A stretch of 30,220 bases of DNA from a virus (lineage: Duplodnaviria > Caudoviricetes): IMG/VR virus record IMGVR_UViG_3300017988_000514, positions 1 through 30,220 of that record. One strand, written 5' to 3'. The notes below the pieces were generated by a model. The model worked only from the letters and a program-made list of their open reading frames with translations, was not told the origin of the DNA and ran no database searches. Shown here one piece after another: positions 3,791-9,761 of this stretch. Each line of letters begins with the position of its first letter. The stretch's first letter is position 1. The translations under genes and the position numbers were made by a program.

Positions 3791-5722
3791 TTAGCCCTCT
3801 TTGGTTGGGGATACACGGGTGATTCGGTATCTCATATTATTAATACTGTCCGCTCCCCATCCATCGGGGTTTGAGTCAATGTTATCTTTCAATTCTGCCA
3901 AACTGTTGAATGTTTCCGCGTAATCCCCATTTCGCGTAAACAAATGAACCATCCTACGAGAAGGTACCCCTCGGTGTTCCCCCTCACCGGCTGGTATGTA
4001 AGCAATCGGTAGCCCCCGATAACGATGGGTGTATGGTTGGCCTTCCTTGCTTCTAAGATAAGCATCCACTGCCGCTGCCTCTTTGGTGTTATTACTGGCC
4101 GCTTCACAGATTTGACGAATTTGATCCCCAGATTGTTGTAACAGTTTGATTACCCCGTTATGGTAATTGCCAGAGTTTTTTACCACATTTTTCTGTAGCT
4201 CTTCCCAAGTGACCCAAACAAGTCCGTCTGTTTCCTCATGAAATTGTAGGTTACTGGAGCCCCCCGCCATTGGGTTCAATTCAAACTCCGTAGGTACCAG
4301 TCCAAGGAAGTTGAAATACTTGAACTTTCCATCCGTAAACACATAGGCGGGGACGAGCCGAATACTTCCTTGATACCCTGTTTCCTCCGCCATCTCTTCT
4401 TTGGCACTTTCAGCCGGGGACATTCCCGGTTGAATAGCTCCTCCGATAGTTCCGAAACAATCCCCCTGATTCACTTCAGGGCTACGCCACGCCAAACAAA
4501 TGCGTCCGGTGGTGGTACATATAGGAAGGATGCCCGACGCTGCTCCTCCCGCCCCAACCCAATATCCTTTCTCATCTTCTCGAAAGGCCCTTTTAGATGA
4601 CGTTTTCTCTTTATCCTGTTGTTGCTCATTCTTTTCATCATCTGGTTTCAGATCAGTTTCGGGGTTGGACTCAGTTTCTGAGGGTTCAATGACCTCATTT
4701 CCCTGCTCATCCACTGCTTCGGCCTTATCCGAGCTTTCAGGGACATTTTCTTTGGAAAGGATTGACCAGTTTGTGTAGATAGTTGGAACGGGGTAGTTGC
4801 CTTCTTTTAACTCTGCCACAGAAGGAAAGTCTGCAAAGGTAACGCAACGACCGTCCGGGAATTTAACAACCCACTCCTTCTTTGAGTTGGAATAGATAGC
4901 CATATCATCCCCAATAGTGGCATAGGGAGAATAGGCTTCATCCCCAACAAAAATACTCTTAGGGATTCCCTCAGCATTTGTCGTCTTCATCTCTACGTCA
5001 TTATCAAACTTAATGGTAGGGGTGAATTCAGGAACTCGTGAACCTTTCTTCTTGTAAATTGCGTTGAGCAGGTTATTCTTGAAACCAGTCCCACTTAAAG
5101 GGATCGTTCCCCGAGGGTTCCCCATCATGTCATATACGATGATGTACATAGGATTGGGTTGAGACTTCAAACTACGGCTGCGGAAATTACGAATGACGCT
5201 CCGTGCATCGTTGACTGTAGTTTTAGACGGTTTTTCATAAGTAAGTTCCAAGTGACGTTGTACAGGGGGTCGTTTAATGGTTTTTCCTGATGCCGTAACT
5301 ACTTTACTGTAAACTTCATTAACAAAGTGGGGATCAATCCGAAACGTACCCTCGAAAACCTTTACTGTGGGGTCTTTACTGATGGCTGACAGGGCTTTAT
5401 CACTATCCGATTCACCAGTAATCCCTTTAAAACACATCAATGCTGCTGCATAGATTTTTACAATAATGCTTTCCTCAAAATTCAAACTTAGCATAAATGC
5501 GGACATTTCATCTAATAACGCGTGGACCGCTTCCGCAACCAACTCACTCATCGTGGAGGGTTTATCCTCAACCAGCGGGAACTTCAATGAAAACACAGTA
5601 AAGTTGGGAATTCCAAGGTCTAAGGTAATCACTGCATAGGGTCTGGCGTCACGCACAACCGTGATAGAAAGGCCACCAGTGGCAGGTGAAAGATAGGCGT
5701 TTTTGAGAGTCTCTAAATTCAT
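3791..5722 (-). CDS. Modular 643-aa protein containing a Nudix hydrolase domain
   Basis: Nudix-box-like GGAIQPGMSPAESAKEEMAEETGY (about 4373-4444), preceded by AASGILPICTTTGRICLAWRS and followed by ETDGLVWVTWEEL. An acidic linker precedes the domain. Confidence 0.85.
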   Translation of the reverse strand: MNLETLKNAYLSPATGGLSITVVRDARPYAVITLDLGIPNFTVFSLKFPLVEDKPSTMSELVAEAVHALLDEMSAFMLSLNFEESIIVKIYAAALMCFKGITGESDSDKALSAISKDPTVKVFEGTFRIDPHFVNEVYSKVVTASGKTIKRPPVQRHLELTYEKPSKTTVNDARSVIRNFRSRSLKSQPNPMYIIVYDMMGNPRGTIPLSGTGFKNNLLNAIYKKKGSRVPEFTPTIKFDNDVEMKTTNAEGIPKSIFVGDEAYSPYATIGDDMAIYSNSKKEWVVKFPDGRCVTFADFPSVAELKEGNYPVPTIYTNWSILSKENVPESSDKAEAVDEQGNEVIEPSETESNPETDLKPDDEKNEQQQDKEKTSSKRAFREDEKGYWVGAGGAASGILPICTTTGRICLAWRSPEVNQGDCFGTIGGAIQPGMSPAESAKEEMAEETGYQGSIRLVPAYVFTDGKFKYFNFLGLVPTEFELNPMAGGSSNLQFHEETDGLVWVTWEELQKNVVKNSGNYHNGVIKLLQQSGDQIRQICEAASNNTKEAAAVDAYLRSKEGQPYTHRYRGLPIAYIPAGEGEHRGVPSRRMVHLFTRNGDYAETFNSLAELKDNIDSNPDGWGADSINNMRYRITRVSPTKEG

Positions 5723-5809
5723 GGGTATTCTTATTCTTATGATGATATAGGGTTATTGAGCTACCCAACTTGAAGGAACCCTACCTTCAAACCTGCCTCC
5801 AACCCCTAT

Positions 5810-5829
5810 CTATTAAAGGAATCGGTAGT
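5810..5829 (-). promoter_or_regulatory. Candidate phage late-promoter motif, copy C (ACTACCGATTCCTTTAATAG)
   Basis: Copy of the shared motif upstream of the 643-aa gene, where minus-strand transcription would have to restart after the plus-strand island. Confidence 0.55.
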
Positions 5830-5845
5830 TTTCTAATAACCTACT

Positions 5846-5880
5846 CCTTGACCTCCGTGACACGTCACGGGGGTTGAAGG
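5846..5880. repeat. Inverted repeat / hairpin 1
   Basis: Core CCGTGAC-AC-GTCACGG (5855-5870), extendable through CCTTGACCT/GGGTTGAAGG with G-U pairs and a bulge. Confidence 0.75.
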
Positions 5881-5881
5881 C

Positions 5882-5916
5882 TATTTGGTGCCGAAGCCCC
5901 TCTTCGGCACCAAATA
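5882..5916. repeat. Perfect 15-bp inverted repeat / hairpin 2
   Basis: TATTTGGTGCCGAAG-cccct-CTTCGGCACCAAATA; no T-tract follows it on either strand. Confidence 0.9.
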
Positions 5917-5928
5917 AAGCTCACCAAG

Positions 5929-5963
5929 TGTCACTTATGCAACTTATGTCACTTATGTCACTT
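5929..5963. repeat. Tandem 9-bp direct repeats, four copies (TGTCACTTA consensus)
   Basis: tgtcactta-tgcaactta-tgtcactta-tgtcactt, followed by the AT-rich tract ttcaaataaatttaaat. Confidence 0.85.
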
Positions 5964-5993
5964 CCTCTAGTTCAAATAAATTTAAATCGGGGC

Positions 5994-6021
5994 TTGCAAA
6001 TCTGTACATCAGTGGTATTAT
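5994..6021 (+). promoter_or_regulatory. Sigma70-type promoter with extended -10 for the 6069 ORF
   Basis: TTGCAA (5994-5999), 16 nt spacer, TATTAT (6016-6021) preceded by TGG. Confidence 0.65.
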
Positions 6022-6068
6022 GTGTTCAGAAAGAATGTTCCAAGAAAAAATTTAGAAGAGGCTCAAGT

Positions 6069-6587
6069 ATGAATCAACGTGAGTTTTTTACTGCTATAGC
6101 GGGAGCAACTGGATTTGCACTCATTGCCCCCAAACTTTTTTCGACTTCAACCGGACGACCCGGTGAAGTGGAGATGCCCACTCTTAATCAGATTTGTGAT
6201 GGGTTTAGTACTATTCACAAAGAAGGTTTAGCAGTGAGGCATGTCTGGGTTCATGCAGATGACCTTCGGAAATTTAGAAAAACCATGGAACCCGCCTACC
6301 CCGAGGGGAGAGAAGACCGCGACCATCTCTGGGGAGCTTACATCAACCCCATACCCGCAAATCAAAAGCGTGGGACCGTATGGCTTCAAAGTGCTGTGAA
6401 GAATGAAAAAGTCCTTGCAATTAGAGTCAATGGGAAACAGGCAGCATCTATTTATACTCTCACAGTTGACCTCAATGGAACACCCCGCCGCCGAAATGTC
6501 CATATAACTAAAGAACCCCACGATCCCCACTTTTGGGCAGTGGATGATCTGATGCCACGTGCCGCAAAACCATTGAAAAATGGGTAA
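6069..6587 (+). CDS. 172-aa protein: Tat-like N-terminal signal/anchor plus a putative major-capsid-protein-like fragment
   Basis: The likely start is ATG 6069 with GAGG SD at 6058-6061 (the track's start at 5874 runs through hairpins and repeats). N-terminus MNQREFFTAIAGATGFALIAP. The core ICDGFSTIHKEGLAVRHVWVHADDLRKF...HLWGAYI...GTVWL recalls HK97-fold capsid segments. The ORF is well supported; the product call is tentative. Confidence 0.7.
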   Translation: MNQREFFTAIAGATGFALIAPKLFSTSTGRPGEVEMPTLNQICDGFSTIHKEGLAVRHVWVHADDLRKFRKTMEPAYPEGREDRDHLWGAYINPIPANQKRGTVWLQSAVKNEKVLAIRVNGKQAASIYTLTVDLNGTPRRRNVHITKEPHDPHFWAVDDLMPRAAKPLKNG

Positions 6588-6600
6588 AATGTGGTATTAT
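6573..6600 (+). promoter_or_regulatory. Sigma70-type promoter with extended -10 driving the CRISPR mini-array
   Basis: TTGAAA (6573-6578), 16 nt spacer, TATTAT (6595-6600) preceded by TGG. It shares GTGGTATTAT and the spacing with the promoter at 5994-6021. Confidence 0.65.
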
Positions 6601-6676
6601 AGGGGTGTGAAAGGCCAGTTTTTCTTGTTTATTTTTAGTGTAATGCCCATAGATACAGGGGTTTGCTAGTAAATGA

Positions 6677-6909
6677 CCTGTGGTTATAGTGGATTTGTCG
6701 TATGAATCCAACATGCCGTTGAACGCGACTGGAATGAGCACCCTGTGGTTATAGTGGATTTGTCGTATGAATCCAACTCAATCACGTTGAGCACGATCGC
6801 TGGCCCGCCTGTGGTTATAGTGGATTTGTCGTATGAATCCAACACATCCCCATTGATGGCATCGGGCATACCTCCTGTGGTTATAGTGGATTTGTCGTAT
6901 GAATCCAAT
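6677..6909 (+). CRISPR. CRISPR mini-array with 4 repeats and 3 spacers; no cas genes in the window
   Basis: 36-nt repeat CCTGTGGTTATAGTGGATTTGTCGTATGAATCCAAC at 6677-6712, 6742-6777, 6808-6843 and 6874-6909 (last base C>T in copy 4). Unique spacers at 6713-6741 (29 nt), 6778-6807 (30 nt) and 6844-6873 (30 nt). Orientation is inferred from the upstream promoter, the AT-rich leader and the variant last repeat. Confidence 0.92.
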
Positions 6910-6960
6910 ATTGGTGGTATCCAAGTTGAGGATTTGTTTATCGGAATAAAAGACCTTCGT

Positions 6961-6995
6961 ACAAGACGAGATCGAACGCGACGAGACACGACAAG
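6961..6995. repeat. Degenerate pentanucleotide tandem repeat (7 units)
   Basis: ACAAG ACGAG ATCGA ACGCG ACGAG ACACG ACAAG. Confidence 0.65.
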
Positions 6996-7046
6996 ATTTG
7001 GTACCTTATCAATTACCATTATTACAACTGACCTACAAGTTAATTT

Positions 7047-9761
7047 TTACTCATACTCATAGGACTGAAGAATGTCACTTCCCCCAATTTCCCATACAAG
7101 GTCCTGACGGGGCGCAAGCAATCCCATTGGATGGTTGATATCCCAGTTCGCCACTTCCCCTGTTACGGTGTTGGTTGTATCAATAACCTGAATCCAACTA
7201 TCCGAATTTGTCAGATAGTTGGAACCAATAAATCGCCACACGATGGAACCATCATAGGTTGGAACAGTTGAAGATTGACTAAATCCAATTCGAGCCGTTG
7301 CAACACTTTCCAACTGGGTTTCCGAGTTATAGTTACTGTGAACAATGGACATGGTGATACTCGTTGAAGTAAACGAGGTGACTAACAAAGTGAGTCCATT
7401 TAAGAAGGTAGCGTATGTGAAACCCAACAAAGCAATTAGGCTGGTGTTAGCCACAAGACCCATACCTGTAGTGCTATTTACGGCCAAAGTAAGTTGGTTG
7501 TTGAGAATTTGAACTGCCCCATAACTAGTCCCCACCGTAGCAATGGGAGAGGTGATTCCCGGAGTGGGTGGAGATTGGGGAGGAGACTGAGGAGATGATC
7601 CCGACGAGGCAATCTGAAGACTACCATAGTTGTCGATCATAAATTGTCCTGTGTAAAATGGCGTGCTGGGAGCCCACTGCCGGGTACCAAAAACGTACAA
7701 CCCATTAGCTGCTTGATAATACGCTTGATAGATAGAAGGTGAGGGTAGTGGTGTCCAATACATTTGATCTGTATCCGCAAGGGGGTCTTGATTGGTGTTT
7801 TCTTGAAGGGCTCGGTATAACTGCCAACCACCCGGAGTCCACATCCCTGCATTAAAGTTACCATCCTCACCCCAAAATCGGCCACGTACAAGGGTACCGA
7901 GAGGATATGCTGTAGAAGCACTCCACACCTGTGGAGAAACAGTTAGCTGCTGCCAAACAGAGGGAAGAATCGGGCTAAGCATTCGGCGACCGTAAGAAGA
8001 TAAAGTAGTGGTGGGGTTGTTTACATCAAAAATAGGAGCCTGATACAACATCGGATTGAAGGGTGGTTCCTCCACCTGTTGAACAATGATTTGCAAAATG
8101 TCATCAATACCACCTGCACTTATCGTTCCATCTGCCGTGGCATTTGGAATAGCCTGTGAAACAATAATAGCAGTGTTCCCCCCAATAAGTGTGGCTGAAA
8201 CTACGGTATAGATTCCATCATTACCTGTGCTACCTGAAACTGTAGCCACTCCTGTGGCTGGTAGATATGAGATTTGATCCCCTGCAACTGTAAACGTCTT
8301 GGTACCTTGATTGACTGCTATGATTGCAAAAAGGGTACAGTTTGTATTCTGGTAGTACCCCTGATAATACCCTTGTTGTGAGGTGGGCAATGCAGCGTAG
8401 GCCGCGATGGTAATCTGCTGTGTACCAATATTGATCCACACCAAAGAGGTTGGGGGACTTAAAGGGGGACTGGACAGACCATCCATTGTTGTACCTTGAA
8501 GAATGGGGTTCCATGTTGGGAGAATAGTGCCTGTTATCCCACTTGTAAGAGCCAGTTGAATATTTCCATTTGAGTCTTGGATTATTGTACCGGCTAAAAT
8601 CTCTGTGAGTGGAATCCACCCAACTATAGGCGGTTGAGTAAGAACATAAGCAACAAGAGAGTAGTAACCCATTTGCTGCTTTGTTAAAGTGTTTAACTGA
8701 AACTGTGTCAGATAACGGGGGCTCAAAAAACAGTCCACATTTTCGTTAGAACCAAATACAGCGGTAAATTCCAAACCCACATGGGCTGGCTTTGCTAAAT
8801 CAATAGCACCATAAAGGGTGTTGGTGATTTGTTGCAACTCAGTCAAGCTCTCCACATCTGTGAAGGGGTCTGAACCTCCCACATTAACACTCACTAACAC
8901 CGTGTTACGGTCGCTTTGATCATAGAACCCACCGGGTACAATTTGTTTGTATAGCTCCTCTACAACAATGTTCTTGCCTGTGTAAGCATAGATGACATCT
9001 TGAATAGATTGAGGAGTTGCCCCTTCTTGATACGCCCCTAGAAGGTCTACCAGCATGTCACGGTACCCCACAGGATAGGTCAATGGGGCGGGAGCAGGAC
9101 CAGAATTCGTCCATACCACTGACCCATCAGTAGTTGTTTCTCCAAGAGAAAGAGCCCATGATGGTTCTTGTAATCCTGTTTGGCCGGGGGTGGTAGCTAC
9201 TTGAAGGTTTCCATTACTATCAAGAACAACCGCACGGAGGAAAGCTCCGGTGTTTGCTTTCCAACCACCAAAAGAAGATGCTCCAAAGTCCCCCATGTCA
9301 AACTGGGAAGACTGTTGAAAAATCCCGGTGATGTACAAAGGGGCTGCGTACTGCCGTTTGACATCAGCCGGGGTCAGGTAGGTTGGGTTCTTTGCAACAA
9401 TGTCGTATGAGTACATATACTCGATACGAGCCAACTCCATGGAAATCGCACGAAGGAAGGCACCCCAGATGCTCTGGTCATTTCGCGTGGTGTAGTAGTT
9501 TGCCAACGCGTTGATGAGCGATTGAAACCGGGCGTCTTCATATAACAAGAGGTCTTCCCGACTGCGTAAATAGAATTGATCCTCCTGTGTAATGACAGGC
9601 ATCTGTACCCAGACCAAGGCATTCTGGTCAGGCTCCTGATTCAGTGAGCCCAAGGTATCTACGCAGATGTAGGTAAACCTACCATATTGCACTGAATCGA
9701 GATAGCTGTAGGTTACGGTAGCTGACCATACTCCTCGTGGATTATAAAGAGGCGATGCCAT
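7047..9761 (-). CDS. Baseplate wedge protein, gpI/gp7-like, carrying Trp-rich carbohydrate-binding-like modules (904 aa)
   Basis: Lies directly downstream of the J-like gene. IDLAKPAHVGLEF contains the KPAH motif typical of gpI-like proteins. Several W...DSNG..Q....G..G...P.W.......T.DG..VW repeats. Confidence 0.7.
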   Translation of the reverse strand: MASPLYNPRGVWSATVTYSYLDSVQYGRFTYICVDTLGSLNQEPDQNALVWVQMPVITQEDQFYLRSREDLLLYEDARFQSLINALANYYTTRNDQSIWGAFLRAISMELARIEYMYSYDIVAKNPTYLTPADVKRQYAAPLYITGIFQQSSQFDMGDFGASSFGGWKANTGAFLRAVVLDSNGNLQVATTPGQTGLQEPSWALSLGETTTDGSVVWTNSGPAPAPLTYPVGYRDMLVDLLGAYQEGATPQSIQDVIYAYTGKNIVVEELYKQIVPGGFYDQSDRNTVLVSVNVGGSDPFTDVESLTELQQITNTLYGAIDLAKPAHVGLEFTAVFGSNENVDCFLSPRYLTQFQLNTLTKQQMGYYSLVAYVLTQPPIVGWIPLTEILAGTIIQDSNGNIQLALTSGITGTILPTWNPILQGTTMDGLSSPPLSPPTSLVWINIGTQQITIAAYAALPTSQQGYYQGYYQNTNCTLFAIIAVNQGTKTFTVAGDQISYLPATGVATVSGSTGNDGIYTVVSATLIGGNTAIIVSQAIPNATADGTISAGGIDDILQIIVQQVEEPPFNPMLYQAPIFDVNNPTTTLSSYGRRMLSPILPSVWQQLTVSPQVWSASTAYPLGTLVRGRFWGEDGNFNAGMWTPGGWQLYRALQENTNQDPLADTDQMYWTPLPSPSIYQAYYQAANGLYVFGTRQWAPSTPFYTGQFMIDNYGSLQIASSGSSPQSPPQSPPTPGITSPIATVGTSYGAVQILNNQLTLAVNSTTGMGLVANTSLIALLGFTYATFLNGLTLLVTSFTSTSITMSIVHSNYNSETQLESVATARIGFSQSSTVPTYDGSIVWRFIGSNYLTNSDSWIQVIDTTNTVTGEVANWDINHPMGLLAPRQDLVWEIGGSDILQSYEYE

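Follow-up and report, generated by a model that had tools for sequence, protein, structure and literature searches.

An inserted jumbo-phage gene that appears to join a Tat-type leader to a capsid A-domain, and its possible role as a decoy for capsid sensors

What is a gene that seems to couple an export signal to a piece of capsid doing in the baseplate and tail-fibre module of a phage? The question is raised by an ORF in a 30,220-nt stretch of Caudoviricetes DNA (positions 1 to 30,220 of IMG/VR record IMGVR_UViG_3300017988_000514), hereafter called the window. From the letters alone, the original prediction had described this ORF as a Tat-like signal fused to a fragment of the major capsid protein (MCP), and had proposed that it titrates capsid-sensing defences or poisons the assembly of a competing phage. 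The gene, its expression signals and the segment that carries them are located as follows:

5723-7046, no strand assigned: whole inserted cassette (gene and CRISPR mini-array), between a NUDIX-domain gene and a baseplate gene
5994-6021, plus strand: sigma-70-like promoter site, TTGCAA-16-TATTAT with TG before the −10; consensus match only
6057-6061, plus strand: ribosome-binding motif GAGG, 7 nt upstream of ATG 6069; read from the sequence
6069-6587, plus strand: ORF of 172 aa, which begins MNQREFF and continues with a 14-residue uncharged stretch
6573-6600, plus strand: second sigma-70-like site, 10/12, extended −10, ahead of the array; consensus match

The ORF is the sole sizeable plus-strand gene within a minus-strand baseplate and tail-fibre module. 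The baseplate and NUDIX genes that flank it are 1,324 nt apart in the window. In the related records G044 and G045 they directly adjoin each other, and in G001, the closest of the available relatives (baseplate proteins 74-77% identical to those of the window), the gap is ~85 nt. By this sequence comparison, the gene and the array are a ~1.3-kb insertion absent from three close relatives (G001, G044 and G045), and gene 6069-6587 is a phage accessory gene that was inserted here and has a predicted promoter of its own. The two sigma-70-like sites have the same architecture and are suggestive, four such sites having been found where 3.3 were expected by chance, so that each is weak when taken alone. 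Coverage in the sole RNA run was limited to 6927-7098. Upstream of the promoter, a perfect 15-bp inverted repeat with a 5-nt loop (5882-5916) is possibly a terminator or an insertion-end feature. Two other genes of the window, a Dps/ferritin-like gene at 1914-2390 and a gene at 3791-5722 whose 643-aa product contains an internal NUDIX domain, are conserved in G001 and G044.

The ORF was assigned to no family in Pfam, PHROGs or NCBIfam (a single Pfam match at E 0.23 was disregarded), and a PDB sequence search gave no match below E 0.9. Its only true homologues were P0004, found at E 1.3e-8 among 1.84 billion proteins and 32% identical across 131 columns, and P0007. A further candidate, P0003 (E 2e-11), was rejected as the sum of weak matches to Ig-like repeats. 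Alignments of both true homologues begin at residue 1 of the ORF and define its leader:

6069-6146, plus strand: Tat-type signal peptide, residues 1-26, with QR replacing the RR of P0004 and P0007

Both homologues read NRRxFL, which bears out the earlier description of a Tat-like N-terminus whose first R is replaced by Q. The S/T-R-R-x-F-L-K motif is found in P0004 and P0007 and not in the ORF itself (N-Q-R-E-F-F), in which codon 3 is CAA (Gln), a single base away from the Arg codon CGA. P0004 scored above the TIGR01409 cut-off (18.1 vs 16.7 bits), as did the related G001 protein P0009, while the leader of the ORF was unscored by PF10518 and TIGR01409 at E<=10. In the accessible part of the TatP study, the first Arg tolerates Lys and not Ala, and Gln is reported solely at the second position (PMC1182353). 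The leader thus appears to be Tat-type by descent, and since QR is not among the tolerated variants reported there, working Tat targeting of this copy is in doubt.

The remainder of the protein divides into two parts:

6165-6440, plus strand: putative stand-alone HK97-fold A-domain, residues 33-124, from the family MCP (profile comparison, fold searches)
6441-6587, plus strand: C-terminal 48 residues, a predicted beta-hairpin then a low-confidence tail, with no conservation among homologues

When the 231-kb record G001, the source of P0004, was searched with an HMM built from four small genes, a 318-aa protein was matched as well (E 4e-5 to 1.6e-4). This protein is the MCP, with matches to NF042927 (E 2e-35), phrog_2522 (E 5e-42) and phage G gp27 (6WKK; E 1e-52). 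The relatives' family MCP was used as the reference throughout, the query phage's own sequence being known from the window alone. The alignment to the MCP that had been suggested as a check failed at the level of single sequences, direct BLAST giving a non-significant E of 0.81, but it stood at the level of profiles: a signal-less profile of the query, P0004 and P0007 gave a match to that of the MCP across MCP 179-241 (93.9%, E 1.5e-7). The score of this comparison (52.2) exceeded all of 100 column shuffles (maximum 19.0); for the query alone, the score was 30.4, the best of 100 shuffles being 20.0. Identity to the MCP is only ~20%; an MCP-only HMM did not find the ORF, and an enlarged A-domain profile ranked it 17th at E 5. 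The core motifs LWGA and RGTVW are retained between the ORF and P0004.

Fold searches pointed in the same direction. Seven of the nine rows listed for ESM Atlas's own model, a search independent of our alignments, were capsid-named or capsid-family clusters (TM 0.40-0.46, residues 25-165), the other two being an unnamed 142-aa viral cluster and DUF2396; feature matches from the same source (0.86) were taken as leads only. AlphaFold, run from a 17-row alignment, gave a pLDDT of 74-86 across most of residues 33-112 and below 50 in the C-terminal tail (model residues 102-134); this model is partly circular because the alignment contained MCP rows, and the single-sequence model (pLDDT 36.5) was unusable. 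With AlphaFold followed by Foldseek, also suggested beforehand, capsids were indeed listed first, with SaPI1 and HK97 on top, but the best E was 0.014 and no match reached E<=0.001. VIA-align returned capsids or encapsulins in 35 of its first 36 rows, the remaining row being PF0899, with a best Z of 7.2 (the tool's bar is 8) over 85 residues at an rmsd of 3.3. All three structure searches thus put capsids first with scores under the tools' confidence bars, and the similarity to the HK97 fold on which the original prediction depended is present in both profile and structure searches, weakly in the latter. In the model, ~84 residues align along HK97 253-383 and gp27 150-280, a span that would correspond to the A-domain with its last strand, the intervening hairpin being skipped.

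Taken together, the homologues, the profile comparison and the fold searches support the earlier reading of an MCP A-domain fragment and name its source: residues 33-124 are an A-domain descended from the phage-G-gp27-like MCP of the phage's own jumbo-phage family. This segment is predicted to fold alone, with the P-domain hairpin excised and the last A-domain strand joined directly. Only residues 33-124 align to the MCP; the P-domain with its spine helix, the E-loop and the N-arm are absent. The product was correctly judged too short to build a shell, since at 172 aa it represents only ~90 of the 318 MCP residues, a full MCP having ~280 residues or more. Where an MCP gene would be expected in the head module, behind protease and scaffold genes, this gene lies between baseplate and NUDIX genes and on the opposite strand. 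We discarded the idea of a Cas protein, since homology to the capsid accounts for the ORF. Separately, ESM Atlas and phrog_17546 contain unnamed viral clusters (53-355 members) of leaderless proteins of ~90 aa that share the A-domain-like fold, and a larger signal-less A-domain-like family may exist.

We then scanned the relatives' records and the cultured phage Tunturi_5 in six frames for MCP-derived ORFs. G001 carries four Tat-tagged MCP-derived genes: P0004, P0008, P0009, whose two A-domain motifs have changed places (BLAST against the MCP, E 4e-10), and a gene with MCP 98-128. G028 carries two, and G046 repeats both; as the same phage as G028, G046 was excluded from counts. A-domain pieces recur in G001 (three), G028, G019 and G022, and several Tat-tagged pieces come from outside the A-domain (MCP 98-128, 22-64 and 274-302). 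G022 codes for a Tat-tagged MCP paralogue of 365 aa with a good ribosome-binding site (L144:13651-14745; G022:273651-274745), from which MCP 52-83, which we take to be the E-loop region, is missing; this near-full-length form is possibly the starting form of the family. Signal-less MCP pieces, N-terminal and A-domain, were found in G022 (L151:479-751 and 979-1512), G011 (L190:4377-4868) and G019 (L201:9482-10198, an A-domain gene with a Cys-rich insert containing CxxC twice). Among 19 ORFs that begin in a Tat-like manner, 6 matched the MCP-only HMM at E<=0.01, compared with 5 among 35,807 others, with G046 and 7 true MCP genes left out; the Fisher P of 4e-18 is overstated, as the denominator consists of stop-to-stop frames that are mostly non-genes and related phages are not independent. 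For three further ORFs of the 19 (the query, P0004 and P0008), profiles show descent from the MCP. No Tat-tagged MCP piece is present in G008 or G011, two complete records, and such genes are therefore optional.

Searches for relatives of the locus itself were mostly blank. No relative of the ORF was found in viral contigs, metagenomes gave the window's own contig only, an alignment-based locus search gave P0004's loci only, tblastn against cultured phages gave two Vibrio matches at E 0.09, and a PF25209 search of G001-G003 gave no match. The genome search of five relatives was blank as well, yet in G046, one of the five, a local HMM detected an A-domain gene with a Tat tag, which makes blanks from that search tool weak. 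Two side observations concern the neighbourhood of the tagged genes. Directly before a Tat-MCP gene of G028 lies another ORF with a Tat leader (L223:17215-17820, 194 aa) and no significant MCP match. In G001, a tmRNA and a tRNA with a CUA anticodon, called Pyl by ARAGORN and possibly an amber suppressor, are found near the Tat-capsid genes (L002:4574-4974 and 8952-9025).

Tunturi_5, a cultured jumbo phage of Acidobacteriota, offers a system in which the design could be tested; twin-arginine is not mentioned in the accessible part of its description (PMC11924767). Its MCP is 72.6% identical to that of G001, and its sole Tat-like ORF in the six-frame scan is gp172 (PP885688.1 122430-122723; L276:22430-22723), annotated as hypothetical, in which a Tat leader precedes MCP 274-302 and then 100-128, a permuted order. 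Its host is Tunturiibacter psychrotolerans X4BP1, and the presence of gp172 in a cultured phage makes the bait reading developed below testable. In the same genome, gp90 (L275:18759-19988) is annotated as 'major head protein'; it has a Walker A motif, reads like an AAA ATPase and was not matched by the MCP HMM, so that on sequence grounds the annotation is likely an error.

The other half of the cassette is the CRISPR array:

6677-6909, no strand assigned: CRISPR mini-array of four 36-nt repeats (the last with one mismatch) and three spacers of 29, 30 and 30 nt (repeat scan)

Repeats with unique spacers of even length are present, a combination seen in 0 of 100 shuffles, and a Pfam/PHROGs scan of 16 ORFs found no cas gene in the window. 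We compared the contigs of 7 sequencing runs, with X1 entering twice and X7 and X9 left out. X2 carries a different spacer 1, and X3 appears to hold spacer 2 twice. Spacer 2 matches perfectly over 30-31 letters (31/31) in contigs with non-repeat flanks in four of the seven runs (X1, X2, X3 and X5); the target element is GC-rich, and its contigs are deeper than the phage in X2 and X3. Both spacer turnover and a protospacer, as expected of a CRISPR array, are thus observed. The array, the insertion and the hints of decay taken up below had escaped the original prediction. Searches of viral contigs, GTDB genomes, plasmids and phages yielded no exact copy of the repeat, and Rfam no family; a simple 16-mer scan of the relatives' stretches, run without the window as positive control, gave no arrays. 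Three 19-nt spacer-core matches in viral contigs were rejected as chance, having 5, 7 and 9 mismatches over 30 nt; spacer 1 lay outside that scan.

What, then, might the gene do? We tentatively favour a role that we regard as possible, if somewhat short of probable: its product would be a decoy for sensors of the Avs7/8/10 type, held at the host Tat translocon away from the real MCP. As far as the accessible text of the relevant study goes, Avs7, Avs8 and Avs10 attach to the A-domain of the MCP (PMC13581612), which makes a decoy, or a poison of assembly, more plausible. For sensors that bind the A-domain, a separately promoted copy of it would be a natural bait, and the decoy reading is also supported by the neighbour in the cassette, a conflict element with a protospacer match. 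The product would be expressed early from the host-type promoter, the A-domain copy would occupy the sensor and leave it inactive, and bait and sensor together would be led by the Tat signal to TatBC, for tethering at the membrane or for export of the sensor as a hitchhiker. Hitchhiker export through Tat is a known process. In the window's copy, the QR motif would weaken targeting, so that the protein may function poorly or the gene may be on its way out.

Several points count against this reading. A free A-domain could trigger the sensor instead of blocking it. Within the part of the study accessible, Avs7 also touches the P-domain and the E-loop and forms a complex of ~1 MDa, and Avs sensors read folds (PMC13581612). 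If sequence matters nevertheless, ~20% identity to the MCP would make a poor mimic; some tagged pieces are not A-domains; and the host is only inferred. A complex of ~1 MDa also exceeds the size limits of Tat export. Further points against the decoy are the QR motif, the variant in run X1 in which promoter and signal are deleted, the lack of Tat-tagged MCP pieces in G008 and G011, and fold scores that all fell short of the tools' bars, the AlphaFold model moreover drawing on MCP rows. A broader version of the decoy reading, which we hold as doubtful, would have the jumbo phages of the family maintain a collection of Tat-tagged mini-genes made from their own capsid gene. With these as bait, the exporter would pull capsid sensors or a rival's capsid subunits to the membrane, or remove them from the cytoplasm as hitchhikers; the near-full-length Tat-MCP would be the start, and stand-alone A-domains the refined end, of such a series.

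The original prediction's second option, that the protein acts against a competitor, we consider unlikely. The A-domain copy would join the capsomers of a co-infecting related phage or pull its MCP to the membrane, stalling head assembly, and gene and mini-array would together be a superinfection-exclusion module. The A-domain forms penton and hexon contacts, according to the accessible part of PMC13581612. The G022 paralogue lacks MCP 52-83, as a dominant-negative subunit would, and the insertion is shared with an array whose spacer 2 matches co-occurring DNA. Against this, the family MCPs are 88-100% identical over 80 loci, so that the phage's own assembly would be affected too; the low identity of the copy makes co-assembly doubtful; and the element bearing the protospacer was not identified as a phage.

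We likewise find it improbable that the window's copy is a degenerating leftover of a working gene family, its Tat motif short of the first Arg and its promoter and signal deleted in part of the population. The CAA codon in place of CGA fits such decay, as does the fact that the ORF has no relative above 32% identity apart from its own cluster of 2. A deletion variant bears on the same point and starts at a repeat:

5929-5963, plus strand: 9-nt tandem repeat, left end of the 144-nt deletion variant; copy number differs in X3

In run X1, one contig skips 5964-6107 (144 nt), and the depths of the skipping and intact paths (5.5 and 6.65) add up to about that of the left flank (13.1). As read from the sequence, the skip removes promoter, start codon and QR motif and leaves the domain just an internal ATG at 6174. 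However, this variant comes from one contig in one of the seven runs, with 30 letters on the short side, and X1 is possibly the window's source sample. Moreover, the frame is intact over 172 codons and is accompanied by a promoter site and a ribosome-binding motif, and LWGA and RGTVW are preserved despite the 32% identity to P0004.

That the Tat translocon itself is the target seems very unlikely. The protein would jam or saturate host Tat export, for instance of periplasmic defence proteins or receptors, and capsid pieces would be no more than convenient cargo supplied by the gene with the highest expression; the signal is indeed constant while passengers are varied and sometimes permuted pieces of the MCP (P0009 and Tunturi_5 gp172), but neither the frequent capsid origin of the passengers nor the signal-less A-domain genes of G019 and G022 would be explained. 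A helper of the phage's own head assembly, as a membrane-bound nucleator or a minor virion part, is highly improbable: although the copy is situated within a structural module, it is encoded on the other strand, downstream of a host-type promoter, and is missing at this site from three close relatives; in G001, its homologues are surrounded by tRNA and small genes, and G008 and G011 do without Tat-tagged pieces.

If the decoy reading is true, this export-tagged A-domain copy would represent a novel type of counter-defence and, within the literature searched, the first case of phage accessory genes turning the host Tat pathway against immunity. The A-domain is a surface that a phage cannot easily change and that several families of bacterial sensors read. 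A literature search at the level of abstracts, covering few subscription papers, found no paper on Tat-tagged capsid fragments; the accessible part of a 2026 review of Tat mentions phages for SlyD and in its references only (PMC13673990), and neither twin-arginine nor decoy occurs in the text of a jumbo-phage survey (PMC7824862). As far as can be seen, the design is new to print, and the locus at 6069-6587 is a good, if possibly decaying, example of it. Added here are a whole A-domain predicted to fold by itself, a graded series of such genes within a single phage family, and, for testing, a phage and host in culture.

Several known systems can be compared with the gene. With the MCP of Bacillus phage G gp27 type (6WKK; NF042927, phrog_2522; HK97 fold), it shares the A-domain order of helix, strand, helix, LWG, strand and strand and the predicted fold, whereas it lacks N-arm, E-loop, spine helix and P-domain, has a Tat-type leader and cannot build a shell. 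Pyrococcus furiosus PF0899 (2PK8), for which we know of no export signal, is a stand-alone 94-residue protein that resembles the A-domain (Z 7.0, 84 residues); it is an archaeal cellular protein of uncharacterised function with 10% identity. In the accessible part of PMC11476376 it is a known stand-alone look-alike of the HK97 A-domain, and it shows that an A-domain is able to fold alone. The leader resembles Tat signal peptides (PF10518, TIGR01409) in the position and spacing of the motif, the Phe at +2, the hydrophobic region and the RR of its homologues; it differs from them in that its first Arg is Gln, it falls under all curated cut-offs and its passenger is a viral structural domain. Huge phages reportedly carry CRISPR arrays without cas genes, and the mini-array is like these in being short, with its own promoter site, spacer turnover and a match to co-occurring DNA, while its repeat is absent from every genome and virus collection searched. 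Finally, Avs7, Avs8 and Avs10 (PMC13581612) and CapRel (PMC9712102) are, unlike the systems above, the proposed targets of the product, and no phage decoy is named in the accessible part of the former study; in the parts of both papers accessible, what they have in common with this gene is the ligand, the MCP, and for the three Avs proteins the A-domain interface that appears to be copied here.
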